The notes below the pieces were generated by a model, which was given only the letters and a program-made list of their open reading frames with translations, ran no database searches and was not told the origin of the DNA. From Gammaproteobacteria bacterium (GTDB lineage: Bacteria; Pseudomonadota; Gammaproteobacteria; Arenicellales; JAANXG01), in the NCBI GenBank assembly GCA_041641695.1, contig JBEPXV010000001.1, forward strand, positions 1 to 25,420: a stretch of 25,420 nucleotides of DNA, read 5' to 3'. Within the stretch, counting starts at the first letter, position 1; the number at the start of each line of letters is the position of its first letter. Both the position numbers and the translations under genes were made by a program. Positions 1,830 to 23,297 of this stretch are shown here, one piece after another.

Positions 1830-1875
1830 TCCCGAACCGGCAGCCCGCGATTCGGACGGCCCGTCGCCTCGCCCC

Positions 1876-2457
1876 TTAAGAGCACGAGGCCGGATTGGCG
1901 GCGGCTTCGATGACCCCGCCCTGGCCACTGCTGTAGTCGACGAAGGCGACCCGGACTCCGGTACCCGGGGCGAGACTGGTGCAGTCGATCGTTGCCGATT
2001 GGGCCGGCGTGTCTATAGCCAGGGCAAACGCCGCAACGCTGGCACTGCTGTTGTTGTGGACGAACAGCTGATAGCGCTCGGTATCCAATGCTTCGCCGCA
2101 GGCGATGGAGGCGGTCTCGCCCCCCGGTGGCTCCGTAACATCGGCGCTGATCGAATGCGGCCCGCTGCTTTCTCCGGGACGCAGCAACGCGCCGCCCGGC
2201 AGCCGCAGGCTCAGATCAAGATCCACGTCATCGGCCCAGGTCAGGACCGCCGTCAGGTCATCGATGCACGGTCCGGGTTCGAGCGGCGCATCATGGGGAG
2301 GCTCCGCAGGCGTGTCTGCGTCCGACGTCTGCGCATGTGCCGGCAGCAACGCGGTTTCGACCACCGGAGTCAGCCATCGGTCGGGAAACGCAGCCGCGGC
2401 ACCACCGGTGCCCAGCATCAGTTTCAGTATCCGCCTGCGCGGAACGTCTTGTTTCAT
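1876..2457 (-). CDS. Tat-exported protein with a YfaP/DUF2135-like C-terminal domain
   Basis: N-terminus MKQDVPRRRILKLMLG has a twin-arginine motif, and AHA/QTS is a plausible cleavage site. The mature part contains LTWADDVDLDLSLRLPGG, resembling the W-x(3-5)-DLDL-x(4)-PxG motif of YfaP/DUF2135. Start placed at 2457 from GGGAG spacing (2463 is an alternative). Confidence 0.6.
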   Translation of the reverse strand: MKQDVPRRRILKLMLGTGGAAAAFPDRWLTPVVETALLPAHAQTSDADTPAEPPHDAPLEPGPCIDDLTAVLTWADDVDLDLSLRLPGGALLRPGESSGPHSISADVTEPPGGETASIACGEALDTERYQLFVHNNSSASVAAFALAIDTPAQSATIDCTSLAPGTGVRVAFVDYSSGQGGVIEAAANPASCS

Positions 2458-2742
2458 GAGCATGTTCTCCCGTGGGATTCTGGTTTTTGATTTGCAGACA
2501 ATCGCTCGTCACATGAGTACATCGATGACCGGCGTGCCCGGATCAGTCCCGTGGTCATTGGAAAAACACACCGCCACTGCCAGGACCTGGAACCGATTCC
2601 GGGAGACCGAAGCGGAGCGATTGTAATCAGGCGGGGGGGAAAGAAAACCGCGGGGCGTTGCCCGAGTGTTTCCGGTTTGTATTCGACGGATTATGAATGG
2701 AGTCGGCGTCGTGCCGACATGTCCTTCGGAATGAATTCCGCG

Positions 2743-3840
2743 CTACGGGCGCGGTCTTCCGCCGATCCAGCCCTTGCGGCGGAAGTAATAGAGCAGCCCC
2801 ACAGCCACCAACAGCATTATGGCGAGGGCGAAGGGATAGCCGAGGTACCACTGCAGCTCGGGCATGTTCAACGGTGAAGCCGCCGGGTCGAAGTTCATGC
2901 CGTAGACGCCGGCGATGAAGCTCAGGGGGATGAATATCGTCGCGATGATGGTGAGCACCTTCATCACTTCGTTCATCCGGTTTGACAGGCTGGACAGGTA
3001 CAGGTCGGTGAGGCCCGCGGCCCGCTCACGGAACGTTTCCAGAATATCGACGATCTGAATCACGTGGTCGTGGCAGTCGCGCAGAAAGTAGCGCGTTTCA
3101 TCGCGGATCAACGGCATGTCACCGGACAGGTCGCGGAGCGCCTCCCGGAACGGCCAGATGCCGTGCCGCAGCACCTGGAAGTCCCGCTTCAGCCCGTGAA
3201 TCTGCTCGACGGTCTGGTGGTCGGGCGCCACGACCACGATGTCTTCCGCGTCGTTCAGGCGTTCGCTGTAATGCTCCAGGACCGGGAAATACGCGTCGAC
3301 GATGGCATCTATCAGGGCGTAGGCGAGGTAGTCCGGGCCCATGAAGCGCACGCGCGTGCCGCCCTTGCGTATCCGCTCGCGAACGGGCTCCAGGCAGTCC
3401 CCGGGCCGCTCCTGGAACGACACCACGAAACGACCGCCCAGAAACAAGCTGACCTGCTCGATATCCAGGGCGTCGTCCCTGATGCGCGCCATGCGGGTCA
3501 CGACGAACAGGTTGTCGTCGTATGCTTCCGCCTTCGGCCGGTGACGCGTGTTCAGTACGTCCTCGAGGGCCAGGGTGTGCAGCTCGAAGATCTCCCCCAG
3601 TCTCTTCAGCAGCTCGACGTCGCCTAGGCCGTCGACATTCACCCAGACCACGTCGTACCGGTCCAGCAATGAACGAATATCGTCCGGGTCCTTCAAGGTC
3701 AGCTCCACAAGCTGGGTCCGGTCGTAGGCCATGATGCTGATCACCGGCTCGGGCGCCCCTTCCGGCTCGATCAGCGTACCAGGGGCCACCGCCTGGTGGT
3801 CCACCTTCTTCTGGCTGAAAAGCCGGTGGTGTCCGCTCAT
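2743..3840 (-). CDS. corA: Magnesium/cobalt transporter CorA
   Basis: 365 aa with the GVYGMNF signature, MPEL loop, two C-terminal TM helices, and LHTLALEDVLNTRHRPK, SNRMNEVMKVLT. Confidence 0.95.
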   Translation of the reverse strand: MSGHHRLFSQKKVDHQAVAPGTLIEPEGAPEPVISIMAYDRTQLVELTLKDPDDIRSLLDRYDVVWVNVDGLGDVELLKRLGEIFELHTLALEDVLNTRHRPKAEAYDDNLFVVTRMARIRDDALDIEQVSLFLGGRFVVSFQERPGDCLEPVRERIRKGGTRVRFMGPDYLAYALIDAIVDAYFPVLEHYSERLNDAEDIVVVAPDHQTVEQIHGLKRDFQVLRHGIWPFREALRDLSGDMPLIRDETRYFLRDCHDHVIQIVDILETFRERAAGLTDLYLSSLSNRMNEVMKVLTIIATIFIPLSFIAGVYGMNFDPAASPLNMPELQWYLGYPFALAIMLLVAVGLLYYFRRKGWIGGRPRP

Positions 3841-3860
3841 GGGCGACTGGTTGGATGCAA

Positions 3861-4067
3861 TCAGTCAGTGCCCGCCCCGGACCGGGGCGCAGCGGATCGC
3901 TCCCGCCACATGCGCTGCAGGAACTCCTCGTCGGAAGGGGAAAGATCGAAGCGCCGGCAGGCCTCCTCGACCACGGCAGGGTCGTTGCACCGCTGCTGGG
4001 CGAGCCAGGCGACGGCCCGCCCCAGCCGCTCCCGGTGCGGGATCAGCGCTTCACCCCGGGCGGGCAT
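3861..4067 (-). CDS. Small conserved hypothetical protein (68 aa)
   Basis: ORF between fba and corA on the same strand. The sequence RAVAWLAQQ...VVEEACRRFDLSPSDEEFL resembles a small helical hypothetical family I recall from proteobacteria. Start placed at the internal ATG (4067). Confidence 0.6.
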   Translation of the reverse strand: MPARGEALIPHRERLGRAVAWLAQQRCNDPAVVEEACRRFDLSPSDEEFLQRMWRERSAAPRSGAGTD

Positions 4068-4124
4068 CCGGCTGTCCGTCCCGGCTCCGCAGCACGACGC
4101 TCGTGCCGCCGGATGGCGCACGGA

Positions 4125-5147
4125 TCACGCTGCCGCTTCCATGGCGCTGCTGTACTCGCCGTTGCGCGCCGCGCTGTTGAGCCTGGCCCGCTCATAGAAC
4201 GCCGCTTGCGCCCGGCTCGCATTGGCGGGATCGCCCTTCCACGCCTGCAGGGTCGTCTCCTGCAGCGCCCGCCCATACGAGAAGCTGAGCTCCCAGGGCC
4301 GGTGGGGCTGCTGGTTGATCGCATTGAGATTGGCCGTGGCCTCCTCGGGGGACTGGCCGCCGGACAGGAAGTTGATGGTCGGAACCGCCGCCGGGACGGT
4401 ACGCAGAAGCACCCGGAGCGTCCACTCGGCGACCTCTGCGGGCCCCGCCTGGTGGGCGCTCTCCTTACCGGAGATCACCATGTTTGGCTTGAGCACCATG
4501 TGCTCCAGGGTGACCCGGTGGCGGTGCAGCGCGTGGAAGACCTCGTTCTGGACCGCCTCGGTGACCTCGGCGCAGCGCTCGATGTCGTGGCCACCGTCCA
4601 TCAACACCTCGGGCTCGACGATGGGCACGATGCCCTGCGCCTGGCAGATGGCGGCGTACCGCGCCAGCACCTCGGCATTGGCTTCCACGGCCAGCCGGCT
4701 CGGCAGCGTATCGGAGATGTGATACACGCAGCGCCACTTCGCGAAGCGCGCTCCCTGTTCTTTGTAGCCCTTCAGACGGTCGTCCAGGTCATCGAGCCCC
4801 CCGGTAATCTCGTCGCCCGGCGCCCCGGCCAGAGGGCCCTTGCCCTTGTCCACCTTGATACCCGGCACGACGCCCCGGGCGGCGGCCAGCTCCGGCAGCG
4901 GCGTGCCGTCATCGGCTTTCTGGCCCAGTGTCTCCTCGAACATGATCACGCCGCTGACGAACTCGCCGATGCCCTCCGTCGACAGCAGCAGGGAACGGTA
5001 GCTGCGCCGATTCTCCTCTGTGGACTCCACGTCGACGGCTTTCAGCCGCTTGGCCATGGTGGGATTACTCTCGTCGGCGGCCAGTATGCCCTTGCCCTTC
5101 CGGGCGAGCTCGTCGACCGTGGCCTGAAGCTCGTCTTGTACGCTCAT
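4125..5147 (-). CDS. Fructose-bisphosphate aldolase class I (animal/plant-type family)
   Basis: Motifs GILAADES, PGIKVDKG, FAKWRCV, PIVEPEV, LKPNMV (Schiff-base Lys), FLSGGQS, SFSYGRALQ. GGAGG precedes the ATG at 5147. Confidence 0.95.
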   Translation of the reverse strand: MSVQDELQATVDELARKGKGILAADESNPTMAKRLKAVDVESTEENRRSYRSLLLSTEGIGEFVSGVIMFEETLGQKADDGTPLPELAAARGVVPGIKVDKGKGPLAGAPGDEITGGLDDLDDRLKGYKEQGARFAKWRCVYHISDTLPSRLAVEANAEVLARYAAICQAQGIVPIVEPEVLMDGGHDIERCAEVTEAVQNEVFHALHRHRVTLEHMVLKPNMVISGKESAHQAGPAEVAEWTLRVLLRTVPAAVPTINFLSGGQSPEEATANLNAINQQPHRPWELSFSYGRALQETTLQAWKGDPANASRAQAAFYERARLNSAARNGEYSSAMEAAA

Positions 5148-5225: not shown

Positions 5226-6062
5226 TCAGTGCGACATCAGCACCGGCACCGTCATGGATTCCAGGATCTCGCGCGTGGCGCCGCCCAGCACCAGCTCCCG
5301 GTAGCGGGAGTGGCCGTAGGCGCCCATGACGATCAAGTCCGCCTGCTGGTCCGAGGCCCGCGACAGCAGCATTTCCCCCACCGAGATATCCTCGGACTCG
5401 ATGTGCGCCGCCTCGGCCTTGACCTGGTGGCGGGCGAGATGCAGGGAGATATCAGCGCCCGGCAGGTCACCGTCGCCGGCCGGCCCCTTGCGCGGATTGA
5501 TGGAAAGGACCCGCACGGACCTGGCCACTTCGAGCAGCGCCATGGCGTCGTGGACGGCGCGCATCGCCTCGCGGCTGGCGTCCCAGGCCACCAGCACGCG
5601 CTCGCCGAAGCTCTCGGGCGCGCCGATGTAGGGAATCAACAGCACCGGGCGGCCGACATCCAGAAGCACCTGCTCCACGACCCCCTGGCTCACCGACCAT
5701 TGATCGGACGGGTTCGCCTGGCCGAGTATCAGGAGATCCACGTACCGGGCATGAAGCGACAATGTCCGCGTGAGCCCGCCCTCGACGAGCCGCCACTCGG
5801 TCGTAACGCCGGCCCGGTCGGCCGCGTCCTTGAATGCCTTTTTCGCCTCCTCGGACTTCTCGAGCGCCACCCGCCGCTGCTCTTCGAGGATGTCCCCGGG
5901 AATATGGGCCTCGGTATAGGCCGGCATCACGGTCTGGTCCGGTGCGACGTAAAGTCCGGTCAAATGGGCATCATGGGCGGCCGCGAGCCGCAATGCGGCA
6001 TCCACGCGCCCGGCGTTGGCCTTGCTGCTATCGACGTGCACCAACAGGTCTTTCAGTGCCAT
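5226..6062 (-). CDS. Universal stress protein, tandem UspA domains (278 aa)
   Basis: Starts MALKDLLVHVD. Contains YVDLLILGQ, GRPVLLIP, RVLVAWDASREA, ADLIVMGAYGHSR and VPVLMSH. AAGGAG precedes the ATG at 6062. Confidence 0.95.
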   Translation of the reverse strand: MALKDLLVHVDSSKANAGRVDAALRLAAAHDAHLTGLYVAPDQTVMPAYTEAHIPGDILEEQRRVALEKSEEAKKAFKDAADRAGVTTEWRLVEGGLTRTLSLHARYVDLLILGQANPSDQWSVSQGVVEQVLLDVGRPVLLIPYIGAPESFGERVLVAWDASREAMRAVHDAMALLEVARSVRVLSINPRKGPAGDGDLPGADISLHLARHQVKAEAAHIESEDISVGEMLLSRASDQQADLIVMGAYGHSRYRELVLGGATREILESMTVPVLMSH

Positions 6063-6170
6063 GGGAGGGCTCTCCTTCTCTTCTGTGAGCGCGCTACGGG
6101 CGCGACGATTTGAATATGCTGCCGACCAGGCGGCAGTGTTTGATTGTCCCGGCCCGGACCCGCGCGGACA

Positions 6171-6184
6171 TTGATCTGGATCAA
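6171..6184. promoter_or_regulatory. FNR/Anr-type binding site (perfect) for the usp gene
   Basis: TTGATCTGGATCAA matches TTGAT-N4-ATCAA exactly. A -10-like GACAAT (minus strand, 6143-6148) places the box centre at -41.5. Confidence 0.85.
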
Positions 6185-6212
6185 TCATGCGCCCGGGGCC
6201 GGTGCCCGGGAG

Positions 6213-9200
6213 TCATGTCCCGCCGTCCGCGCCGCGCCGCTCGGCGAGCATCAGCAAGCACGGCGTCAGGAACAGAGTCAACACCGTCGCCAGCGCGAGG
6301 CCGCCGGCGATGCCGCTCGACAACTGGGTCCACCATTGGGACGACGGCGCCCCGTAGGCGATATCGCGTCCTACCAGATCGACGGTGAGCGTGAGCACCA
6401 TCGGCATCAGGCCGAGAATGGTGGTCGCCGAGGTCAGTATAACCGGTCGGCGCCTCTGCATGGCGGTCCGCAGCACGGCGGTGCGCAGGTCCGTGCCGCG
6501 CGCCCGGTAGCGGTTGAACGTGTCGATCAGAACGATGTTGTTGTTGACCACCACCCCCGCCAGCGCGATCACCGCGACACCGCCCATAACCACGCCGAAG
6601 GCCTGGCCGGTGATCAACAGGCCGATCAGCACGCCGGCGGTAGAAAATACGATGGCGCTCAGGATGATTCCGGTCTGGGCGAAGCTGTTGAACTGCGTCA
6701 CCAGTACGATGAGCATGATGAAGATCGCCGCCGCGAACGCTTTTGACAGGAAAGCCGAGGCCTCATCCATCTCCTCGGCTTCCCCCTTGAACCGGACCTG
6801 GAGCCCGGCCGGCAGCCCGGCTTCCGGCAGGGCCGCGCGGATACGCCCCACCTGGTCGTCCGGCAGACGGCCGGCTGCCACGTCCGCCTTGATGGTCATG
6901 ACCCGCCGCCCGTCGACCCGGCGGATGGAGCCGGTCTTGGGTGCCGGCCGGAAGCTTACGAAGTTGCTGATCGGCACCTGGCCCACCCTGGTGGGCACAC
7001 GCAGCTCATCGAGCTGATCCAGGGTGCGCTCGTCGTAGGGAAAGCGGATACGTATATCGACGGCTTCGTCCGCATCCTCGGGGCGATACTCGCCGAGATT
7101 GATCCCCGCCGTGAGCATGCGCACCGACTGGCCGAGCAGCAGAACATCCGCACCGAATCGCGCCGCCGACTCGCGGTCGACTTCCAGGCGCCACTCGATG
7201 CCCGGCAGGGGCCGGGAGTCCTCGACGTCCACGAAGCCGTCCAGCTCCGTCATCAGGCCGCGGAGCCGCTCGATGCCCGCTTCGATGTCCCCGAGGTTCT
7301 CGCCGCGGACCTCGATCTGTACCGGCTTGCCGGTGGGCGGCCCCGATTCCTGCTCCGCCACCTGGACCACCACGCCCGGGGCGCGCGAGGCCCGATGGCG
7401 GATGTCGGCGATGATCTCGTCGGCGGGACGGCGCTGCCGCCAGTGCTCGAAATCGAATTGAATGAGACCTATGGTATCGATGGGCAGAAAATCCTCTACG
7501 CCCCGCGTCGTGCCCATGGTACGGGCGTAAACTGTTTCTACGCCCGGAACGCCGGACACGCGCCGCTCGAGGTCGCGCACCAGCTCGTCCTTCTCCCACA
7601 CGGACAGATCGCCGCGCGCCCGTACCTGCGCCTGAGCGAGCTCCGGCTCGATGTCCGGGAAGAACTCCACGCCACGGCCAAGCTCGGCATAGGCCAGGTA
7701 AACACCCACCAGCACAAGGACCGCAACGACCAGCACCGCCCGGGGCCGGCGCAGCAGACCGGCGAGCGCGCGGTAGTACAGGCCGGTTTCCGGGATGCGC
7801 TCGTCTAGGTCGGTATCGAAGTCCGCTTCCCGTGGGCCGTCATTGCCGGACGCACCGGCATCTCTCCCGCGCGCTATGGCCGCGCCGATCACCGGGACGA
7901 AAATCAGCGCCATGAGGAGCGACGCCAGCAGCGTGACCAGAACGGTGACGGGCAGGTATTTCATGAAATCGCCGACGATCCCGGGCCAGAACAACAGCGG
8001 CACGAACACCGACAGGGTCGTCGCGATGGACGCCGTGATCGGCCAGGCCATGCGCCGGGACGCGGACTCGAAAGCGAGGCGCGGCGGCATGCCGGCATCC
8101 ACGCGCCGGTCGGCCTGCTCCACCACAATGATGGCGCCGTCCACCAGCATGCCCACCACCAGGATCAGGCTGAACAGGGCGATGATGTTCAGTGTATAGC
8201 CCATCGAGTACAGCGCCAGGATGCCGGCCAGGAAAGCGCCCGGGATGGCGAGCCCCACCAGCAGGCCCGCCCGGAGACCCAGGACCGCCACGATCACCAG
8301 CATCACCAGCACCACGGCGGTGAGCACGTTGTTCTCCAGCTCACCCACGACCTGCCTGATGTCCTCGGACTGGTCCTGCAGGTAGGTCACGCGGATCCTG
8401 CCGCCCCAGCGCTGCTGCTGAGTTTCGATGATGTCCCGAGCGCGGTCCACGGTATCGATGATGTTCGCGCCGACGCGCTTCTTTATCTCGAGGGCCACCG
8501 AGGGCTCCCCGTTGACCCGCGCGAAGCCGTCCGGGGTCTTGAAGGTTCGGCGCACGGTGGCCACGTCGCCGAACGTCACCACGCGGCCGTCCACGGTCTT
8601 GAGAGGCAGCGAGAACACGTCCTCGCGCGACTCGATGACACCCGGAACCTTCAGAGCGATCTCGCCGGCCCGCGTCTCCAGCATACCGGCGGCCACCAGG
8701 CGATTGTTTCGCTGCAGGGTGCTCACCACCTCCTCGAAGGAAAGCTGGTAGGTCTGGAGCACCGTCGGGTCCACCAGGATCTCCATGACCTCCTCGCGGT
8801 CGCCGCCGATATCCACCTCCAGCACGCCGGGCAGGCCTTCCAGCCGGTCGCGCAGGTCCCTGGCGGCGGCGATCAGCCGGCGCTCCGGCACGTTGCCGGA
8901 CAATGCGGCCGTCACCACGGGGAAAAGCGCGATGTTCACTTCGCTGACGATCGGCTCCTCGGTGTCGGCGGGCAGCTCGCCGCGCACATTGTCCACCCGC
9001 TCGCGCACGTCGGTGAGCGCCTGGTCGGCATCGAAGCCGGCGCCGAACTCTAGGGTGATCGTCGCATAGCCCTCGGCGGCCAGTGAGCGCATCTCGTCAA
9101 CGCCCTCGATCGCCTGCAATTCTGTTTCCATTGGCCGCAGGAGCAGCCGTTCGGCGTCGTCCGGGGCGATGCCCTCGTGGATCATCGACACATTGATGAT

Positions 9201-9332
9201 GGGAATGTCCACGTCCGGCGCCGCTTCCTTGGCGATTCCGAAGTAGGAGAGGGCCCCGGTGATCAGGACGAATGCCAGCAGCAGAATCACCGTGCGGCTG
9301 CGGGAGAACGCAGCGCTGATCAGCAGTTTCAT
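6213..9332 (-). CDS. RND efflux transporter permease, AcrB/AcrD/AcrF family
   Basis: About 1039 aa with two TM bundles and two large periplasmic loops. Motifs include EAAPDVDIP, GMLVDGAIIVVE, FWPGIVGDFM, RRRPVILTSATTILGLMP. Start placed at MKLLIS (9332). Confidence 0.93.
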   Translation of the reverse strand: MKLLISAAFSRSRTVILLLAFVLITGALSYFGIAKEAAPDVDIPIINVSMIHEGIAPDDAERLLLRPMETELQAIEGVDEMRSLAAEGYATITLEFGAGFDADQALTDVRERVDNVRGELPADTEEPIVSEVNIALFPVVTAALSGNVPERRLIAAARDLRDRLEGLPGVLEVDIGGDREEVMEILVDPTVLQTYQLSFEEVVSTLQRNNRLVAAGMLETRAGEIALKVPGVIESREDVFSLPLKTVDGRVVTFGDVATVRRTFKTPDGFARVNGEPSVALEIKKRVGANIIDTVDRARDIIETQQQRWGGRIRVTYLQDQSEDIRQVVGELENNVLTAVVLVMLVIVAVLGLRAGLLVGLAIPGAFLAGILALYSMGYTLNIIALFSLILVVGMLVDGAIIVVEQADRRVDAGMPPRLAFESASRRMAWPITASIATTLSVFVPLLFWPGIVGDFMKYLPVTVLVTLLASLLMALIFVPVIGAAIARGRDAGASGNDGPREADFDTDLDERIPETGLYYRALAGLLRRPRAVLVVAVLVLVGVYLAYAELGRGVEFFPDIEPELAQAQVRARGDLSVWEKDELVRDLERRVSGVPGVETVYARTMGTTRGVEDFLPIDTIGLIQFDFEHWRQRRPADEIIADIRHRASRAPGVVVQVAEQESGPPTGKPVQIEVRGENLGDIEAGIERLRGLMTELDGFVDVEDSRPLPGIEWRLEVDRESAARFGADVLLLGQSVRMLTAGINLGEYRPEDADEAVDIRIRFPYDERTLDQLDELRVPTRVGQVPISNFVSFRPAPKTGSIRRVDGRRVMTIKADVAAGRLPDDQVGRIRAALPEAGLPAGLQVRFKGEAEEMDEASAFLSKAFAAAIFIMLIVLVTQFNSFAQTGIILSAIVFSTAGVLIGLLITGQAFGVVMGGVAVIALAGVVVNNNIVLIDTFNRYRARGTDLRTAVLRTAMQRRRPVILTSATTILGLMPMVLTLTVDLVGRDIAYGAPSSQWWTQLSSGIAGGLALATVLTLFLTPCLLMLAERRGADGGT

Positions 9333-9345
9333 CGCGGCCGAGCGA

Positions 9346-10425
9346 TCAGCCGGCGGCGCCGGCGGCAACGTAGTCGACGCTCTGCCCGGGGGAGACGAAC
9401 CCGCCGCCGGTGGTGATCACGCGCGCCCGCTCCGGAAGCCCGGTCACCCACACGCCTTGAGGGTCCGCGCGCACGATCTCGACGGGCAGGTACTCGACGC
9501 GCCCGTCGTCGGACACGAGCTTCACGCCCAGGCGGCCGGCGTCGTCGAGCTCCAGCAAGGCGGGGGACAGGCGATGGGCGTTGACGCCGCCGATGGGAAT
9601 GACAATCTCGGCGCTGGTGTTGGCCGGCACGCCGGCCGGATTGTCGATCTCTATCTCGACGCGGTAGGTACGGCTGGACTCGTCGGCGCGGGGCGCAATC
9701 GCGATGATCCGGCCGGCACGGGTTTCACCGGATACCAGCGTCACCCTCGCTTCACCGCCGAGCTCCACGGCGTTGAAGTGGCGCTGCGACAGCCACGCCT
9801 CGGCGATCAGCGGCGTATTGTCCACCACGGTAACGATGGTGCCCTGCACCGCCGCGTAATCACCGACATCCACCATGACCTGGTCGACGATGCCGTCGAA
9901 GGGCGCGACGATGCGCGTGCGGGCGATATCGAGCTCGATCCGGCGCAGCGCGGCCTGCGCGGACGCCAGGGCGGCGGCCGCCTCGTCCTGGCGGACTTCG
10001 GACTGCAGGCCGCTTTCCCCCAGCCGCCGAGCGGCTTCGTGCTCGCGTTCCCGCTGGCGCAGGATGGCCCGTGCCTCGGTGAGCCGGGCTTCGCGGTCGT
10101 CCATGTCGAGCCGGACCAACTCCTCCCCCTGCACCACACGCTGGCCCGACTCCACCAGCACCGCTTCGACCTGGCCGTCGGTCCGCGCGCGGAGTGTCGC
10201 GGCACGCTCCGGCTTCGCCTGGCCCTGGGCGACGATCCGGCGCTCGATACGCTCGGCCCCGATCTCGGTCACCTCGACGGTGAAGGCATCCGCCGGCTCA
10301 CCGGCGCCGGATTCATCGGGACCCGTAGTGGCACCGTCATCGCGCAGCAGGCCGCTCAGCATCCAGAGCACCACCGCCAGCGCGATGGCGCCGGCCAGCC
10401 AGTAGTTTCGCGGAATCCGGTTCAT
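9346..10425 (-). CDS. RND periplasmic adaptor (membrane fusion protein)
   Basis: N-terminal TM anchor, lipoyl-like GQRVVQGEELVRLD, an alpha-hairpin and TRIVAPFDGIV. AAGGAGG precedes the ATG at 10425. Confidence 0.92.
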   Translation of the reverse strand: MNRIPRNYWLAGAIALAVVLWMLSGLLRDDGATTGPDESGAGEPADAFTVEVTEIGAERIERRIVAQGQAKPERAATLRARTDGQVEAVLVESGQRVVQGEELVRLDMDDREARLTEARAILRQREREHEAARRLGESGLQSEVRQDEAAAALASAQAALRRIELDIARTRIVAPFDGIVDQVMVDVGDYAAVQGTIVTVVDNTPLIAEAWLSQRHFNAVELGGEARVTLVSGETRAGRIIAIAPRADESSRTYRVEIEIDNPAGVPANTSAEIVIPIGGVNAHRLSPALLELDDAGRLGVKLVSDDGRVEYLPVEIVRADPQGVWVTGLPERARVITTGGGFVSPGQSVDYVAAGAAG

Positions 10426-10521
10426 GGCCCTCCTTGTAGAACACACAACAGGATCAGAGAACAACCTTCTCCAGGAGGGAATGTTTCCCGACCTTGCCTC
10501 CTTGGCTTAATCCGGACGGCG

Positions 10522-11088
10522 CTACCAGAAGCGCGGCCGCCCGACGTCGAGGTGCACGAAGCTGCTCTTCGGGTAATAGCCGACCCCGCCGGCCTTCAGA
10601 TCCAACGCGACCTGGCGCAGCTCGGGAAGCGGCACGGACGGCAGCCGGACATCGATGGCCTTGCCCTGCATGTGCAGGCTTTTCTTGGCGACGCCGTTGC
10701 TGTTGGCTCGCAGCTTGGCATTGGTCTTCGGGGAACGGTAACCGGAGATCACGTGGTAGGGCTCGCGCGCTTCCAGCTTGCGGCGAACCACGGTAAGCAG
10801 GTCCAGCAGTTCCGTGTCGATCTCCGCCATCTCCTCGGCGCGATGGTCGCGCAGCACGTACGCGATGTCCTCCAACGCAACCGGGTCGTAAGACCCCCCG
10901 GCCCAGTACCGGCACTCGAGATGATCGTTGGTGTGCAGGTTGCGGAAGGCGAGCGTCCGGTCGGTGTCGGGTTTCAGTATCAGGGCCGGCGCCTCGCCGG
11001 CCACGCACAATCCGGCCGCCAGACCGAGGGTTCGGCTGACGAAACGCCGCCGGCCCGAGGAATGCCTCGAAGATTCAGGATTACTCAT
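10522..11088 (-). CDS. YcbK/DUF882 family Tat-exported peptidase M15 (MepK-like murein endopeptidase)
   Basis: Tat signal GRRRFVSRTLG, then RTLAFRNLHT, VISGYRSPKTN, SLHMQGKAID, GVGYYP and FVHLDVG (His/Asp/His zinc ligands). Confidence 0.92.
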   Translation of the reverse strand: MSNPESSRHSSGRRRFVSRTLGLAAGLCVAGEAPALILKPDTDRTLAFRNLHTNDHLECRYWAGGSYDPVALEDIAYVLRDHRAEEMAEIDTELLDLLTVVRRKLEAREPYHVISGYRSPKTNAKLRANSNGVAKKSLHMQGKAIDVRLPSVPLPELRQVALDLKAGGVGYYPKSSFVHLDVGRPRFW

Positions 11089-11287
11089 AATAGTCCGGTC
11101 AACTAGTCGATTCGGGTTGCAGGAATTCCGTGTGATCAGGCGCCGCTCTCAGGCGTTCAATGCGCCCGTCCAGGTCGTTTCTCTAATCAATGGCTTATCC
11201 ATTATCCACTCAGCAGCTCCAATACGCCAACTAAATCGATGCACGGTCAGCCACCCGGCGATTCTGAAGTTCCTGACAGCGCATTTG

Positions 11288-11301
11288 ATGATCTCGATCA
11301 A
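11288..11301. promoter_or_regulatory. FNR/Anr-type site upstream of the transporter-arcABC operon
   Basis: ATGATCTCGATCAA, one mismatch to consensus. A -10-like CATGCT at 11324-11329 gives -41.5 spacing. Confidence 0.7.
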
Positions 11302-11372
11302 CCCGGCGACTTGGCCGCTCATCCATGCTTCGGGCTCACATTTCCCGCCCCCGACCCCGAAGGAGCAACGCA

Positions 11373-13379
11373 GTGACCAATGATAAACGGACCACGGCTC
11401 GACCCGGCGCGACACACCCGCCGGCCTCCTCTCGCACCATCCTCACATTGGCCACCGGACTGCTGATTGCCGCGATCCTTGCCGTGATGCCGCGTTTCGC
11501 CACCGCGCAGGACGACCAGCCCTTCCAGCTCGACACTGGCGACCAAGTGGTCTCCGGCGTGGAGACTTCGGTCACCGTGCAGGGGCCGGAAGGCCTGATC
11601 ACCGAAGAAACGGCCGCCACGCTGCGGGTCGACGGCCGGGACTACCCGCTGACTCTGGGACCGGACGGCCGGGGCACCGTCGAGGGCGTGGTCTTCGGTG
11701 CGCTGGACAACGACGTGACGCTGCAAGTTGCCGGCCAGCCGGTGGCGGTGGACCCCGGGACCGGCACGGCCGTGCTGGACGCCTCCATCCCGGCGCTGCC
11801 CGGGTGGCTGTCGATACTGCCGCCCATCATCGCCATCCTGCTCGCGCTGCTCACCAAGCGCGTCATTCCCGCCCTCGTGATCGGCGTATGGGCCGGCGCC
11901 TGGTTCTCCAGTGAGCTCACCCTGGCGGGCATCTGGTACGGGCTGCTGGACGTCATCGACACCTGGGTCCTGCGGGCGCTGGTACCCGAGGACGGCGGCA
12001 CCGGTCACATGTCCATCATGCTGTTCACCATGCTCATCGGCGCCATGGTCGGAATCATCTACCGCAACGGCGGTACCCAGGCCATCGTCGACAAGCTGAC
12101 CGCCTGGGCCACCAACCGGCGGCGCGGCGAGGTCGCAGCCGGCGCCGTGGGCACGGCGATATTCTTCGACGACTATTCGAGCCTGCTGGTTCACGGCAAC
12201 GCCGTGCGGCCCATGACCGACCGCCTGAAGATCTCCCGGGAGAAGCTCGCCTATATCGTGGATACCAGCGCGGCCCCCATTGCGACCTGGGCGTTCATCA
12301 CTACCTGGATCGGATTCCAGGTCGGCCTGATCGCCGATGCTACGGCGGGTATCGCCGGAGTGGAGGGCAGCCCCTATGCGGTGTTTTTCTCCTCCATCCC
12401 CTACATGTTCTACCCGCTGCTGGCTTTCCTGTTCATGTGGCTGCTGATCGGCACCGGCCGCGACTGGGGGCCGATGGCGCGCGCCCAGGACCGCGCCCTG
12501 GGCGGCGACGTCGGCGGGACCACCGCCGAGCAGAGCGAACGGGCAGGTCTGGTCGAAAAGGAAGGCGTGCAACGCGGCGCGCTGAACGCCGTAGTTCCGA
12601 TCGTCGTGCTGCTCGCGGTCACCATCATCGGCCTGTTCGTTACCGGCTCCGGCGACACGCTGATGGATGTGATCGGCAGCGCCGACTCGTTCACCGCCCT
12701 GCTGTGGGGTTCGATGCTGGCGGTGATCGCCGCTGTGGTGATATCCGTGGGCCGCGGTCTGCTGTCCCTGGGCGAATCCGTGGAGAGCGGCATCGACGGC
12801 ATCAAAGCCGTGTTCGACGTGCTGGTGATCCTGACGCTGGCCTGGGCGCTGTCCGCGGTTACGGAAAATCTGCAGGCGGCAAACTGGCTGGCCTCCATGC
12901 TGGGCGAGGCGCTGCCCGCCGCCCTGATGCCGGCAATCCTGTTCGTGATCGCCGCGGCCATCGCCTTCGCCACCGGTACCAGCTGGGGCACCATGGGAAT
13001 CCTGCTGCCGCTGGCCGTGCCGCTCACCTGGACGATCATGGGCAACCAGGGCCTGGCCGGCGCCGATTACTTTTATATCCTTTACGGCGCCGTGGGCGCG
13101 ACGCTCGCCGGCGCGGTATGGGGCGACCACACCTCACCCATCTCCGACACCACCGTGCTGGCCTCGGCGACCTCCCATTGCGGCGTGGTCGAGCACGCCA
13201 ACACGCAGTTGCCGTACGGCCTGCTGGTCGGAGCGGTAGCGCTGGTGCTCGGCTACCTGCCGGCGGGCTTCGGGCTGCCGGCCTGGCTGTCGCTGGTCAT
13301 CGGCCTGGTCGCGCTGATCGTGATCGTGCTGTTCGTGTTCCGGGTTCCCGAATCGTCCACCACGAAAAATCAATCATGA
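11373..13379 (+). CDS. NhaC-family transporter with N-terminal extracytoplasmic domain; putative arginine/ornithine exchanger
   Basis: Motifs [80 protein letters not shown] start follows AAGGAG. Its stop overlaps the arcA start (ATGA). Confidence 0.85.
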
Positions 13380-14611
13380 ACACCGACACCAATGACAACG
13401 GCCTCGGAGTCTGGTCCGAGGTCGGGAAACTCAAACGGGTACTGGTGCATCGCCCCGACCTGAGCCTGCGCCGGCTCACACCCGGAAACTGCCACGACCT
13501 GTTGTTCGACGACGTGCTGTGGGTCAAGCGGGCGCGCCAGGAGCACGACGTCTTTGTCGATGTGCTGCGCGATCGCGGCGTCGAGGTGCTGCAGCTTCGC
13601 GAGCTGCTCGCCGAGACCCTGGAGATCCCCGAGGCCCGGGACTGGCTGCTCGACCGCGTCGTCTCGCCGCTGCGCTCGGGTGTGACCATGCTGGCGGAGA
13701 TGCGGGCCTGGCTCGAGGAGATATCCACCCATGACCTGTCGAAGCACCTGATCGGCGGCCTGGCCAAGGCGGAGAGTCCGTTCGCCGGAGACGGGCTGAC
13801 CGGGCAGTTCATGGATCGCCACGAGTTCATCCTGCCGCCGCTGCCCAATCACCTGTTCACGCGGGATACTTCCTGCTGGATCTACCAGGGGGTTTCGATC
13901 AACCCCATGGCCATGCACGCCCGCAAGCGCGAAACACTCAACTACCAGGCCATATACCGCTTCCATCCGATGTTTACGGGCGGCGGTTATGAAGTCTGGT
14001 TCGGCAGCGAAGAGCAGGACTATGCCGATGCCACCATCGAGGGCGGCGACGTGATGCCCATCGGCAACGGCGCCGTCCTGGTGGGCATGGGGGAGCGCAC
14101 CACGCCCCAGGCCGTGGAGTGCCTGGCGCAGTCACTGTTCCGCGGCGGCGGCGCCGAACGCGTGATCGCCGCGGCATTTCCCCGCGCCCGCTCCGCCATG
14201 CACCTGGACACAGTGTTCACCATGCTCGACCGCGACAAGGTGACCTGCTTCCCGGAAGCGGTGGAGACGTTCCGCACCTGGAGCCTGCGACCGGGCGACG
14301 GTGATGGCGGCATCGAATTGTCCACGGAGAAGGGTTTCATGGAGGCGGTCTCCGACGCCCTCGGCACGACCCTGACTACCATTCCCACCGGCGGTGACAG
14401 CTACGAAGCCGAGCGCGAGCAATGGGACGACGGCAACAACACCCTGGCCGTGGAGCCCGGCGTGGTGATCGGCTATGACCGGAATGTCTACACCAATACC
14501 CAGCTCCGCAAGGCGGGCGTGGAAGTGATTACCATCCCCGGCTACGAACTGTCCCGCGGCCGGGGCGGCGCCCACTGTATGAGCTGCCCGATCCAGCGCG
14601 ACGGCATCTGA
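13376..14611 (+). CDS. arcA: Arginine deiminase
   Basis: 411 aa from ATG 13376: [68 protein letters not shown] (catalytic Cys). Confidence 0.97.
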
Positions 14612-14629
14612 AGGAGGTAAACACCAGCC

Positions 14630-15622
14630 ATGCTACGCAACCGAAGCTTTCTCAAGCTCAGCGATTTCTTCCCGGAGGAGATCGAGTATCTGATCAACTT
14701 TGCATCTGAGCTCAAGGAGGAAAAGCGCGCCGGTACCGAGCGCCAGCGACTGAACGGAAAGAATATTGCCTTGATATTCGAGAAGGACTCCACCCGGACC
14801 CGCTGCGCCTTCGAGGTCGCCGTGCACGACCAGGGCGCCCACGTTACCTATATCGGCCCCAGCGGGTCGCACATCGGCGTCAAGGAAACTGTGAAGGACA
14901 CGGCGCGCGTCCTCGGCCGCATGTACGACGGCATCGAGTACCGGGGCTTCGGCCAGGCGATTGTCGAGGAGCTTGCCACCCACGCGGGCGTGCCGGTGTG
15001 GAACGGCCTGACGGACGAATTTCACCCGACCCAGATCCTGGCGGACTTCCTGACCATGCGCGAGCACTGCGACAAGCCGCTTCACGACATCTCGTTCTGT
15101 TTCCTCGGCGACTCGCACAACAATATCGCCGATTCGCTGATGGTGGGCGCCGCCAAGCTGGGCATGGATTTCCGCATGGGATCCCCGGCCGCTTCCCACC
15201 CCCGGGGCGACGTCCTGACCTATGCGACGGAGCTGGCGGGGGACCGCGGCGGCTCGATCACCCTGACCCAGGACATCGACGCGGCGGTGGAGGGCGTGGA
15301 CTTCATTTACACCGATGTGTGGGTATCCATGGGCGAGCCGGACTCGGTGTGGAACGAGCGCGTGGCGATGCTGCGCCCTTACCAGGTGAATATGGACGTG
15401 CTGGACCGCAGCAGGAATCCCGAAGTGAAGTTCATGCACTGCCTGCCGGCTTTCCATAACCGGGAGACGGAAAAGGGGGAGAAGATTTTCGAGAAATACG
15501 GCCTGGACGGCATGGAGGTCACCGAGGACGTGTTCGAGTCGAGCCACTCCATCGTGTTCGACCAGGCCGAGAACCGGCTGCATACCATCAAGGCCGTGAT
15601 CGTGGCCACGCTGGGAGACTGA
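14630..15622 (+). CDS. arcB: Ornithine carbamoyltransferase, catabolic
   Basis: [59 protein letters not shown]; lies between arcA and arcC. Confidence 0.96.
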
Positions 15623-15626
15623 CGCC

Positions 15627-16529
15627 GTGCGGGTGGTGGTGGCCCTCGGGGGCAACGCGCTGCTCAGGCGCGGCGAGCCCCTGGAAGCGGATGTCCAGCG
15701 CCGCAATATCAAACGCGCCGTGGACGCCCTGGCACCCGTCGCGGCGGAGCACGAGCTTGCCATCACCCACGGCAACGGCCCCCAGGTCGGGCTGCTGGCG
15801 CTGGAGTCCTACGCCTACCGGGAAGTCGGGGAGTATCCGCTGGACGTGCTCGGCGCCGAAAGCGAGGGCATGATCGGCTACATGATCGAGCAGGAGCTCG
15901 CCGGCCGCCTGCCGGGGCGCGAAACCGCCGTGCTGCTGACCCAGGTCGCCGTCGATCCGGAGGACCCCGCGTTTCGGAATCCGACCAAGCCGATCGGGCC
16001 CTGGTACGACAAGGGCGACGCCGAGCGTCTGGGCAGCGAGCGGGGCTGGTCCTTCGTCGCCACGGGCGGCCAGTACCGGCGGGTGGTCCCCTCTCCCCTG
16101 CCCCGGCGCATTCTCGAGATCGGGACCATACGCCTGCTGATCGACGCCGGCGTCATCGTCATCTCGGTGGGCGGCGGCGGTATCCCGGTCATCGTTTCCG
16201 ACGACGGCGTGATCCGCGGTGTCGAGGGGGTCATCGACAAGGACCGCGCCGCCGCGCTCCTGGCCAGCGAGATCGGCGCCGACGCCCTGCTGCTGCTCAC
16301 CGACGTCGACGGGGTGTACGCCGGCTGGGGAACCGAAGAGCAGCGCCGGCTGGGAGAGACCACGCCGGAAGAGCTCGGTGCCCTGGACCTGGAAGCGGGC
16401 TCCATGGGCCCCAAGGTGGAGGCCGCCTGCACCTTCGCCCGGCATACCGGCGGTCTCGCCGGCATCGGGGCGCTGGAAGACGCCGGCGCGATCCTGGCGG
16501 GCGAAGCGGGCACTCGCATCCGGCGCTGA
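15627..16529 (+). CDS. arcC: Carbamate kinase
   Basis: VVALGGNAL, THGNGPQVG, NPTKPIGP, YRRVVPSPLP, GGGGIPV, GVIDKD, LTDVDGVY, GSMGPKVEAA. Confidence 0.96.
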   Translation: MRVVVALGGNALLRRGEPLEADVQRRNIKRAVDALAPVAAEHELAITHGNGPQVGLLALESYAYREVGEYPLDVLGAESEGMIGYMIEQELAGRLPGRETAVLLTQVAVDPEDPAFRNPTKPIGPWYDKGDAERLGSERGWSFVATGGQYRRVVPSPLPRRILEIGTIRLLIDAGVIVISVGGGGIPVIVSDDGVIRGVEGVIDKDRAAALLASEIGADALLLLTDVDGVYAGWGTEEQRRLGETTPEELGALDLEAGSMGPKVEAACTFARHTGGLAGIGALEDAGAILAGEAGTRIRR

Positions 16530-16579
16530 CGTGCCGGCCGCCCGGCATCCTCGCCAAGCGCCGGGTTTCTCCCGCTTGC

Positions 16580-16593
16580 TTGACCTGGGTTAA
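16580..16593. promoter_or_regulatory. FNR-like site upstream of dodecin
   Basis: TTGACCTGGGTTAA is a TTGAC-N4-GTCAA variant with one change. An extended -10-like TGnTACGCT at 16612-16620 gives about -40.5 spacing. Confidence 0.5.
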
Positions 16594-16684
16594 CTCGCCG
16601 TTCGAAACGGCTGTTACGCTGACACCCGTTTTACAAGACATCAGCCAGCCAACCAATACGCCTGATCAGGCGGGGAGGACTTCA

Positions 16685-16885
16685 ATGTCCGTAGCAAAAG
16701 TGATCGAGATAACCGCCAACTCCACCGAGAGCTTTGAGGACGCCATCGAACAGGGCATCAAGTCCGCCGCCCGGAGCGTTCACAACATCAAGGGAGCATG
16801 GGTCAAGGAACAGCAGGTCGTCGTCGACGGCGACCAGGTCTCCGAGTACCGCGTCGACCTGAAAGTCACCTTCGTTCTCGACTGA
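16685..16885 (+). CDS. Dodecin family flavin-binding protein (66 aa)
   Basis: MSVAKVIEITANSTESFEDAIEQGI...YRVDLKVTFVLD is the typical dodecin pattern. GGAGG RBS. Confidence 0.92.
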   Translation: MSVAKVIEITANSTESFEDAIEQGIKSAARSVHNIKGAWVKEQQVVVDGDQVSEYRVDLKVTFVLD

Positions 16886-16891
16886 AGCCGC

Positions 16892-16944
16892 GAGTGCCGC
16901 CCTCCTCGCCCGCCGGACAACGAGGGCAAAAGGGGGCGGCACTC
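16892..16944. terminator. Hairpin between convergent dodecin and hpf genes
   Basis: 11-bp perfect inverted repeat GAGTGCCGCCC (16892-16902) / GGGCGGCACTC (16934-16944), with additional imperfect inner pairing. No clear U tract. Confidence 0.5.
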
Positions 16945-16967
16945 CGTCAACGTGCCCGCGGCCGGCG

Positions 16968-17342
16968 CTACTCGATGGTCTCTCCGGGAGGCACCGGCGG
17001 CTCGTGGGTCTTGACCTTGCCCCGCCGCCGCTGCTCGTACTCCTTCAATTGGCGGCGGGCGCTGTTGAACGCGTCGCGGATCGCGACGTAAACATCTTCG
17101 TGGGCGTGGTTCTCGGCCGGGCTCCGGCTTGCCACGATTTCAGTGTCGGGCACGTGGAGCTCGATGAGAACGCTGTAGATCTTGCCCTTGTGGTGGTGCT
17201 TGTGGGGCGCGTCGATGGTCACGTGGCAGGCCGTGACCTGGTCGCTGAACTGCTCCAGCTTGTCGACCTTTTCCCGCACGGCTTTCTCCACGGCCGTGGA
17301 AGGATCCATATTGTGATAGGTAAGCTGTAAGGATACCGCCAT
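16968..17342 (-). CDS. HPF/RaiA family ribosome-associated (hibernation) protein
   Basis: [60 protein letters not shown]. Confidence 0.9.
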
Positions 17343-17404
17343 ATCGATTGCACCTGGTTGAGAACCGGAGAATCCGATTGTGCGCAGTCCCCCGCCGACA
17401 CCTA

Positions 17405-17418
17405 TTGATCCGTGTCAA
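17405..17418. promoter_or_regulatory. FNR/Anr-type site for the hpf gene
   Basis: TTGATCCGTGTCAA, one mismatch. A -10-like CACAAT (minus strand, 17377-17382) puts the centre at -41.5 for hpf. Confidence 0.78.
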
Positions 17419-17509
17419 TCAAGCGGCTGAAATGGAGCGCGCACCCGGACCGTCCGGCATCGAGTGCGTGCGGGGAGCATTCCGGGGCAACTCCGGCTAT
17501 ATTCGCGAC

Positions 17510-19066
17510 ATGACCGACAGGAACACAGCTACCGGCCGACTGAAGCTGCGCCACGTGGCCGTGGACACCTACCACGAGAACGTGGCCTACATGCACCGGG
17601 ACTGTGAGAATTACCGCGCGGAGGGATTTCAGGCGCTGTCCAAGATCAAGATCAGCTCCGATGGTCACGCCATACTGGCCATGTTGAACGTAGTGCGCGA
17701 CGACTCCCTGGTCTCGCCGGACGAACTGGGCCTGTGCGACCAGGCCTTCGAGCAGCTCGACCTCGAGGAGGGAACGAACCTGACCGTCGAGCACGCCGAG
17801 CAGCCCCGGTCCATGAGCTGCGTGCGCCGCAAGATCGAGGGGGAGCGCCTGAACAGAGCGGACTTCCAGGCCATTACCCGGGACATCGTCGACAACCAAT
17901 ACACCAAGATGGAGATGGCGGCATTCCTTGTCGCCGCCGACCAGGGCGGGCTCGACCGCGACGAGGTTCTCTACTACACCGAGGCCATGGCCGACACGGG
18001 TCGCCGGCTGGACTGGCACGAGTCCCTGGTGGCGGACAAGCATTGTATCGGCGGGATACCCGGCAACCGAACGTCCATGCTGGTGGTGCCCATCGTGGCG
18101 GCCCACGGCATGCTCATTCCCAAGACCTCCAGCCGCGCCATCACCTCGCCCGCCGGCACCGCCGACACCATGGAGGTGCTGGCAAAAGTCGACCTGTCGC
18201 CGGCCGATCTGCACCGGATCGTGCGCAGCGAGCGGGGCTGCCTGGCCTGGGGAGGAACCGCGCAACTGGCCCCGGTGGACGACATTCTCATCGCCGTTGA
18301 GCGGCCGCTGGGTATCGACGCCATGGGACAGATGGTGGCGTCGATCCTGGCCAAGAAGCTGGCGGCCGGCTCAACCCATCTCCTGGTGGACATTCCCGTC
18401 GGGCCGACCGCCAAAATCCGCAGCGAGCGCAGCGCCATGCAGCTTCGCAAGCTGTTCGAGTACGTCGGCGACCGCTGCGGCATCCACCTCGAGGTCATGA
18501 TCAGCGACGGCAGCCAGCCCGTGGGGCGCGGTATCGGGCCCGTTCTCGAAGCCCGCGACGTTATGCAGATCCTGCGCAACGACCCGGCGGGGCCGGAGGA
18601 CCTGCGCCTCAAGGCCTTGTACCTGGCCGGCCGCGTGCTGGAGTTCGATCCCGATGTGCGCGGCGGCCGGGGCTTCGCTATAGCCCGGGACATCCTGGAA
18701 TCGGGGCGGGCACTGACCCGGATGGAGGCTCTTATCGAGGCGCAGGGCGTACAATCCCGGCCGCCGGAGCTGGGCACGCTCATCCACGAGGTGACCGCCC
18801 GGCGCGAGGGGGTGATCGGGGCGATCGACAATTACCGCCTCAACCGGATCGCCAGCCTGGCGGGCGCGCCCATGGACAAGGGTGCCGGCGTGGACCTGTT
18901 GAAGAAAATCGGGGACCCGGTCGCCGCGGGCGAGCCCATGTACCGGCTGCACGCCCAATTCCAGGCCAACTTCAAGTTCGCGCGGAACATGATAGAAAAG
19001 GACACTGGGTTCACGATCGGCGACGACGACAACATCGAATCGGAAATTTCAAATGCCCGGAAGTAA
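17510..19066 (+). CDS. AMP phosphorylase / archaeal-type thymidine phosphorylase family protein
   Basis: 518 aa from ATG 17510, with the extra N-terminal domain ([17 protein letters not shown]...ALSKIKI) of the AMP-phosphorylase type. Also [71 protein letters not shown]. Confidence 0.9.
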
Positions 19067-19934
19067 GCGCTTGCTGGTCCTCGGTTTCCCGGAATACGTG
19101 GAACAGGCGAACCGCCTGGCCGGCGCCCTGGACAGCGCCTGCAAGATTATCGACATTCACCGTTTCCCTGACGGCGAAAGCCGGGTACGGCTGCCGGAGG
19201 AAGTACCGGCCCACGTGGTGCTGTGCCGCAGCCTGAACCAGCCCAACGACAAGCTTGTGGAGCTGATGCTCGCCGCCCGCACGGCGCGGGAACTGGGCGC
19301 CCGGGTCCTGACCCTGGCGGCGCCGTACCTGTGCTACATGCGCCAGGATGCCGCCTTCGCCGGCGGCGAGGCCGTCAGCCAGACCATCGTCGGGGAATGG
19401 CTGGGCAGCCTGTTCGATCGCGTCGTCACCGTGGACCCGCATCTGCACCGGACCGGCACCCTGGACGAGGTGGTGCCCGGCGCCGAGGCCGTCACGGTGA
19501 GCGCCGCGCCGGCTATGAGCGAGTACCTGAAGCACCTGCCCGACGCGCCGCTGCTCATCGGCCCCGACGATGAGGCCCGCCAGTGGGTGCAGCAGATCGC
19601 CGAGCTGTCGAACGTGGAATTCGCGGTGGCCACCAAGCAGCGCAGCGGCGACCGCGACGTGGAGGTGACCCTTTCCGACCACGACTGCGGAAACCGGAAC
19701 GTGGTGCTGGTGGACGACATCATCAGCACCGGCGAGACCATGGCCGCCGCCGTGCGCCACGCCCGGGCGGACGGCGCCGCGGCGATCCATTGCCTCGTCA
19801 CCCACGCCCTGTTCTGCGAAAGCGCGCTCGAGCTCCTTGAATCGGCGGGCGCGACCGGCATCGTCAGCACCGACAGCATCGAGCATCCTTCCAACAGGAT
19901 CCATCTGGCCCCGCTCATCGCAGAGGCCATATGA
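19053..19934 (+). CDS. Ribose-phosphate pyrophosphokinase, short archaeal-like type
   Basis: [50 protein letters not shown]. 293 aa; overlaps the upstream gene by 14 nt. Confidence 0.88.
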
Positions 19935-22020: not shown

Positions 22021-22034
22021 GTGATATGCGTCAA
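22021..22034. promoter_or_regulatory. Weak FNR/CRP-like site upstream of the cytochrome c gene
   Basis: GTGATATGCGTCAA, two mismatches. It overlaps an 8-bp inverted repeat TATCACAA (21997-22004) / TTGTGATA (22019-22026). No convincing -10 at -41.5 spacing. Confidence 0.3.
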
Positions 22035-23200: not shown

Positions 23201-23297
23201 GGCCCACCGTGCCTGAAGATCGTTCCATGACCTCGAGCTACCCTTTACCAGCTGACTAATACCAATTTTATACAGACACGTGACGGAGGCCGTCATC

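Follow-up and report, generated by a model that had tools for sequence, protein, structure and literature searches.

Predicted FNR-type activator sites at class II promoters of universal stress protein, arginine deiminase, dodecin and ribosome hibernation genes in an uncultured gammaproteobacterium

Introduction

The first contig of a gammaproteobacterial metagenome-assembled genome (MAG; GCA_041641695.1, JBEPXV010000001.1) carries, within the 25,420-nt stretch analysed here (positions 1 to 25,420 of the forward strand, referred to as the window), genes for a tandem universal stress protein (USP; usp), an arginine deiminase (arc) operon, a dodecin and a member of the ribosome hibernation factor (hpf) family, each preceded by an inverted repeat that resembles the binding site of FNR-family regulators. 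This raises the question of whether the four repeats are activator sites through which these genes could respond to low oxygen and, if so, which regulator would read them. Our data suggest that they are very likely FNR-family activator sites at class II promoters, with an FNR/Anr homologue encoded on contig C203 as the most likely primary regulator. The repeats are far more frequent between genes than expected, they stand at the distance from a -10 hexamer that is typical of class II promoters, they are found again upstream of orthologous genes in related genomes, and the C203 protein has the residues of an oxygen-sensing FNR.

Materials and methods

The window belongs to contig C1 of a 2.52-Mb MAG (464 contigs, 65% GC, estimated 71% complete) that apparently originates from a hypersaline lake metagenome. 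The genome was divided into coding and intergenic DNA (12.6%) by a custom codon-usage gene caller, flanking genes were identified by Pfam and promoter -10 hexamers were read by hand. Mismatches were counted against TTGAT-N4-ATCAA (core TTGA-N6-TCAA), and a position weight matrix (PWM) was iterated from the genome's exact intergenic TTGA-N6-TCAA sites. Expected numbers were taken from second-order Markov simulations of intergenic DNA for the PWM and from dinucleotide shuffles for the window. Promoter geometry was assessed on the 36 sites of at least 14 bits with a single possible target gene, the flank being oriented toward that gene. In the comparisons G000 is this genome, and G001, G002 and G003 are genomes of the same genus.

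Results

All four boxes described in an earlier note on this DNA were recovered with exactly the sequences and positions given there, and all are intergenic between Pfam-confirmed genes. The usp box (TTGATCTGGATCAA; 6171-6184, centre 6177.5) is a perfect palindrome with no mismatch (21.3 bits), the arc box (ATGATCTCGATCAA; 11288-11301, centre 11294.5) and the hpf box (TTGATCCGTGTCAA; 17405-17418, centre 17411.5) have one mismatch each (17.9 and 18.2 bits, respectively), and the dodecin box (TTGACCTGGGTTAA; 16580-16593, centre 16586.5) has three, with a TTAA right half-site (14.9 bits). The exact intergenic sites of this genome give its own consensus as TTGAY-N4-RTCAA, in which T and C are equally frequent at position 5, as are A and G at position 10. 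Over the whole genome, sites without a mismatch occur five times in intergenic DNA against 0.06 expected (coding, 0 against 0.18) and sites with one mismatch 32 times against 2.2 expected (coding, 38 against 7.7). Because sites with zero or one mismatch so far exceed expectation, the usp, arc and hpf boxes belong to a strongly enriched class; in the window itself there are three matches with at most one mismatch where 0.25 are expected. The genome-wide PWM scan that the earlier note had proposed for estimating the background returned, at or above the 14.9 bits of the dodecin box, 51 intergenic sites against 3.05 expected and 23 sites in 2.2 Mb of coding DNA, and the intergenic enrichment of boxes across the 2.5-Mb MAG is about 15-fold.

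The -10 hexamers proposed for the four promoters were likewise in place. GACAAT at usp (6143-6148, - strand), CATGCT at arc (11324-11329, + strand) and CACAAT at hpf (17377-17382, - strand) start 29.5 nt from the respective box centres, which would set the box at -41.5, and the hexamer of the extended -10 of dodecin, TGtTACGCT (16612-16620, + strand), starts 28.5 nt from its box centre, which would set that box at -40.5. The predicted transcription start sites (TSSs), at about 6136 (-), 11336 (+), 16627 (+) and 17370 (-), follow arithmetically from this geometry. The arrangement extends beyond the four boxes for which it had been claimed and is a genome-wide property of the regulon: a NANNNT hexamer starts 29.5 nt from the centre at 11 of the 36 oriented sites and 28.5 nt from it at another 9 (20/36 together; binomial P ~2e-12), against a background of ~1.6 per offset and 0-2 at any offset on the side facing away from the gene. 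The -40.5 spacing at the dodecin promoter is accordingly a common variant here and no oddity, and most of the orthologous box promoters in related genomes have a -10-like hexamer at the same spacing.

The usp gene (5226-6062, - strand) encodes a tandem USP of 278 aa with two PF00582 domains. Its start codon is preceded by GAAGGAGAG and lies 115.5 nt downstream of the box centre, and a box is found at 19 of 26 related loci with usp orthologues, down to 40% protein identity. Between the stop codon of an RND pump gene and the usp box there is also a CCCGGG-N7-CCCGGG hairpin (6192-6210), which has no T-run and would be a weak terminator at best.

The arginine deiminase operon (11374-16529, + strand; Pfam and custom gene calls) consists of a gene for an NhaC-family transporter (PF03553; start at 11374 (GVG/GTG) or 11448, end at 13379), followed by arcA (13376-14611; PF02274), arcB (14630-15622; PF00185/PF02729) and arcC (15627-16529; PF00696), all on the + strand. 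The likeness to Pseudomonas arcDABC holds for arcA, arcB and arcC and fails for ArcD, the first gene being that of an NhaC-family transporter. arcA is found within the genus alone, and G001, G002 and G003 all have a box of at least 16.5 bits upstream of their arc genes. The operon of G002 (C2:134900-139500) has another membrane transporter, YfcC-like by eye, in place of the NhaC-type one, and in G003 the box stands directly before arcA with no transporter between, i.e., the arc operon kept its box while the transporter gene was exchanged among species of one genus. A class II -10 was also sought on the other side of the arc box, toward the divergent M15 peptidase gene; AGAATC is correctly placed there but was rejected for its missing final T.

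Dodecin (66 aa; 16685-16885, + strand; PF07311) begins 98.5 nt downstream of the centre of its box. At three mismatches the mismatch count is uninformative as a test of this box and was replaced by the genome PWM, which places it among the enriched sites of at least 14.9 bits, and by conservation. Measured against the genome's own consensus the box has a single core deviation, C to T, which turns TCAA into TTAA. A box is present at 10 of the 13 closest orthologues and five of these keep the TTAA half-site: TTGACCTGGGTTAA is identical in G001, of the same genus, and TTAA is also kept at four loci of another genus, in G014, G016 (two copies) and G008.

The second hpf-family gene (16968-17342, - strand; PF02482; 124 aa), a ribosome hibernation factor paralogue, starts 69.5 nt from the centre of the box at 17405. 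This genome has a better-scoring hpf-family gene on another contig (C4:7099-7365), and the copy in the window is therefore an extra, box-associated one. The box is present at all 12 related hpf loci for which upstream sequence is available, in six of them 63-145 nt upstream and in the other six ~625 nt upstream, before one intervening open reading frame (ORF). In six relatives of genus g6 a conserved ORF of 155-171 aa comes first behind the box and the hpf orthologue follows it. A first search, with a 6.7-kb stretch, listed no RNA data set; in a second, two sediment metatranscriptomes that contain 10-14% of the sampled words gave related-strain contigs of depth 2 and 151-272 nt over 16400-17700; one of these (17293-17443) spans the predicted hpf TSS and the box, although starts, strand and level are not readable from it and DNA carry-over is possible.

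It is possible, although rather doubtful, that the box at 17405 serves the + strand operon on its other side (17510-21319; phosphorylase, PRPP-synthase-like and beta-CASP genes) instead of hpf, or both as a shared bidirectional site. The phosphorylase ATG is 98.5 nt downstream of the box centre, and G002 has a perfect box 113 nt upstream of the orthologous phosphorylase gene. However, the 300 nt upstream of that gene are free of boxes in G001 and G003, G000 and G002 differ by 14 bp in the distance from box to ATG, and of 80 more distant orthologues only ~5 show a box of at least 13 bits within 400 nt. On its + side the box has no -10 in class II position, and its spacing is class II-like to the divergent gene (hpf in G000, the arc operon in G002). 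The phosphorylase gene, moreover, has a conserved hexamer of its own, TATATT (TATTAT in one relative), with exactly 6 nt between it and the ATG in each of the four genus members (17498-17512 in the window), which suggests a conserved leaderless transcript with its own promoter. No class I spacing from the box to this TATATT could be fitted by hand. Since the phosphorylase gene has its own hexamer, the box is inconsistent within the genus and its spacing fits the divergent gene, the comparison favours hpf as the target.

A possible fifth box, absent from the earlier note, is found at 22021-22034 (GTGATATGCGTCAA; 14.3 bits). It precedes by 144 nt a gene for a di-haem cytochrome c (22172-23200), behind which comes a HIG1/DUF2909-like gene (23280-23492), and nothing at class II distance from the box makes a convincing -10. 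With it, 5 of the 62 sites of at least 14 bits in the genome fall in the window, 1% of the genome's length, where 0.62 would be expected (Poisson P(>=4) = 0.004). Genome-wide, the regulon comprises roughly 50-60 candidate sites, and according to Pfam the genes behind other high-scoring boxes encode HSP20, ClpB, two P-type cation ATPases, a nitroreductase-like protein, cytochromes c, a NapC/NirT cytochrome, NnrS, glutamyl-tRNA reductase (hemA), two CBS-domain proteins, an SCP2 protein, an ATP-synthase beta-like subunit, an E1 dehydrogenase and an acyl-CoA synthetase. Genes of FNR-family paralogues are also among the targets. A similar combination of respiratory and dormancy-type genes is known from Anr/FNR regulons and from the Burkholderia lxa locus (PMC3721108). 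The box of the SCP2-domain protein (C11:5281-5854) scores 20.1 bits and lies 42.5 nt upstream of the called start; this protein may be a UbiT-like factor that serves ubiquinone synthesis independent of oxygen.

About ten Crp/Fnr-family genes were found in the genome. One of them (C203:2361-3119, - strand) encodes a 253-aa FNR homologue that aligns with Aliivibrio fischeri FNR (PDB 5E44/5CVR; E 1e-36) and has Fnr as its best NCBIfam match. Cys16, Cys19, Cys25 and Cys118 of this protein stand opposite the [4Fe-4S] ligands Cys20/23/29/122 of A. fischeri FNR, and its VETVSR (204-209) stands opposite the VETISR reading helix, both of the E--SR type. Its own promoter (2361-3150) carries a 17.8-bit box directly after TATAAA and just before the ribosome-binding site, which looks like the arrangement expected for negative autoregulation. 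The earlier note had supposed one CRP/FNR-family regulator encoded elsewhere; the C203 homologue fits the second half of that statement, but as at least two paralogues with similar helices are encoded on C38 and C152, co-activation of usp, arc, dodecin and hpf by exactly one regulator is an assumption. The C38 paralogue (6980-7731) is FixK/Dnr-like, with an ETLSR helix and no N-terminal cysteines, and its gene is preceded by a 20.2-bit box and, at class II distance from that, by CCTAAT. The C152 paralogue (4135-5138) has an ETLCR helix (E--CR) and no cysteine cluster; three or four boxes precede its gene, which is divergent from a NapC/NirT cytochrome gene. To judge from these helices and boxes, the three proteins probably form an FNR-to-FixK/Dnr-type cascade whose members may share sites.

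This cascade offers an alternative to the C203 protein as the primary regulator, namely that some or all of the boxes are read mainly by a cluster-less paralogue, either the FixK/Dnr-like protein of C38 or the E--CR protein of C152, which FNR would switch on and which might perhaps sense nitric oxide, haem or another signal. Consistent with this are the boxes in front of both paralogue genes, the helix of the C38 protein, the NapC/NirT neighbour on C152 and, at dodecin, the asymmetric TTAA half-site maintained over two genera. In Dinoroseobacter shibae, sites of the forms TTGAC-N4-GTTAA and TTAAC-N4-GTCAA lie ~39.5-43.5 bp from mapped starts of FnrL/Dnr-controlled promoters, the first being exactly the form of the dodecin box and the second its reverse complement, and the TTAAC-N4-GTCAA site of the nirS promoter has been tested by mutation (PMC5398030). 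However, the sub-regulons are not separable in our sequences, the three strong boxes conform to the canonical FNR/Anr site, and in known cascades Anr acts directly on USP and arc genes (PMC3721108, PMC6588701), which makes reading by a paralogue improbable. A narrower and more speculative form of the idea, unlikely in our view, is that the asymmetric TTGAY-N4-RTTAA dodecin site, kept in two genera, marks a sub-regulon that a cluster-less FixK/Dnr-like paralogue reads in preference to FNR, and that dodecin and the second hpf are conserved direct low-oxygen targets across a gammaproteobacterial family. If this were true, flavin sequestration would be wired to the second tier of the oxygen cascade.

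It is very improbable that all the matches, the dodecin box above all, are chance AT-rich intergenic palindromes without a regulatory role. Matches with three mismatches are indeed frequent (728 intergenic against 376 expected, ~1 per 430 bp), and at up to two mismatches the window is not clearly enriched (8 against 3.4 expected), but stricter thresholds give a 15- to 80-fold enrichment, the -10 spacing peak is confined to the gene side and the same box precedes orthologues of merely 45-80% protein identity, a conservation that has largely refuted this reading already. That the CRP-like protein of C75, which has an SREMVSR helix and CRP as its best NCBIfam match, reads the boxes as cAMP-CRP sites is scarcely credible, since their sequence is TTGAT/ATCAA, unlike TGTGA/TCACA, and T at position 2 (35/36 oriented sites) with G at position 3 (34/36) is the mark of an FNR as against a CRP half-site.

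The outer parts of the window (12-5147 and 24510-25418) also look low-oxygen related. According to Pfam they encode a ribonucleotide reductase large chain (605 aa; 12-1829), CorA, a class I fructose-bisphosphate aldolase and, in part, a P-type cation ATPase (its C-terminal portion), and no strong box was found directly upstream of any of these four genes within the window.

Discussion

We infer binding, activation and the oxygen signal from the boxes, their enrichment, geometry and conservation and the residues of the C203 protein. In the proposed mechanism, the [4Fe-4S] cluster of the C203 protein would assemble only without oxygen and would then allow dimerisation and DNA binding. The dimer, centred ~41 bp upstream of the start, would stand in for the missing -35 element and recruit RNA polymerase to a weak -10. 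Falling oxygen would in this way turn on the tandem USP, the transporter-arcABC operon, which would supply substrate-level ATP from arginine, the flavin-sequestering dodecin and the extra ribosome hibernation factor.

Several points weigh against an FNR-type regulon with the C203 protein as its main reader. In one half-site of the dodecin box TCAA has lost its C, a position that we take to be a key contact. The PWM was trained on sites of the same genome, these four boxes included, and the split into coding and intergenic DNA depends on a crude custom gene caller. On the side of the regulator, the C203 protein scores 176 bits, below the curated NCBIfam cut-off for Fnr of 228, the MAG is so incomplete that further regulators may be missing, and the C38 and C152 paralogues, with their near-identical helices, might recognise these boxes as well. 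Anr sites are stated not to differ in sequence from those of Dnr (PMC5398030), and for this reason a family member cannot be assigned to each promoter.

The promoters resemble the class II promoters of Escherichia coli FNR and the arcDABC promoter of Pseudomonas aeruginosa in their TTGAT-N4-ATCAA inverted repeat, and they share with E. coli FNR and P. aeruginosa Anr promoters a box centre 28.5-29.5 nt before a weak predicted -10 and hence a predicted position of ~-41.5 or -40.5. Equivalents of Cys 20/23/29/122 and an E--SR helix in the regulator, arginine deiminase genes as a target and a regulator gene with a box over its own promoter are further common features. Of 24 Pseudomonas species with arc genes, 20 have an Anr box ahead of arcD (PMC6588701). 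Unlike P. aeruginosa arcDABC, which begins with the ArcD antiporter, the operon here begins with an NhaC-family transporter, and unlike in E. coli and P. aeruginosa the consensus tolerates C as readily as T at position 5 and G as readily as A at position 10, and about a quarter of the oriented sites (9/36) have a spacing 1 bp shorter.

A similar gene cluster is the lxa locus of Burkholderia, with its motif; the same paper notes that P. aeruginosa USPs are under Anr control (PMC3721108). Both are chromosomal clusters behind a TGA-N6-TCA motif that include USPs, and the proposed role of both is survival without oxygen. The HSP20/alpha-crystallin, metabolic and electron-transfer genes of lxa have counterparts behind boxes elsewhere in our genome, and the class II ribonucleotide reductase of lxa can be set beside the ribonucleotide reductase of this window. 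The present cluster is smaller, with 5 boxes in 25 kb compared to 17 motif sites in a 50-gene locus, and unlike lxa it belongs to a high-GC gammaproteobacterial MAG from a hypersaline lake and includes an arc operon, dodecin and hpf; the terms "dodecin" and "ribosom..." are absent from the text of the lxa paper (PMC3721108).

The set of regulators resembles FnrL/DnrD/DnrE/DnrF of D. shibae and the Anr-Dnr pair of Pseudomonas in having one cluster-bearing FNR and cluster-less paralogues behind boxes. Unlike in those cascades, of denitrification genes only NnrS and a NapC/NirT-like cytochrome gene stand behind boxes in this incomplete MAG. The target genes also recall the DosR regulon of Mycobacterium tuberculosis, with its USPs, alpha-crystallin, Acg-type nitroreductase, P-type ATPase and ribosome hibernation factor, although the mycobacterial regulator is an unrelated two-component response regulator with a different DNA motif. 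Dodecin abundance in M. tuberculosis rises as oxygen falls, and it is stated not to be DosRS-regulated in mycobacteria (PMC12855090). Our literature search found no work that mentions both "dodecin" and "Fnr". Hibernation factors activated by FNR are less textbook because the hpf relative RaiA of E. coli is reported to be down-regulated by FNR (PMC8778775).

Taken as a whole, this is an ordinary FNR/Anr-type low-oxygen regulon that resembles the Burkholderia lxa locus, and its mechanism is textbook. Less familiar, and modestly new, are dodecin and an extra hpf copy as conserved FNR-box targets, as are the conserved imperfect TTAA half-site at the dodecin promoter and the retention of the arc box across the exchange of the transporter gene within the genus. 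For an uncultured bacterium of a hypersaline lake, the analysis provides a well-supported regulon map consisting of a motif, a promoter geometry, a regulator and ~50-60 candidate targets, and it indicates how this organism probably survives the loss of oxygen, that is, by drawing ATP from arginine, silencing its ribosomes, storing flavins and making stress proteins.

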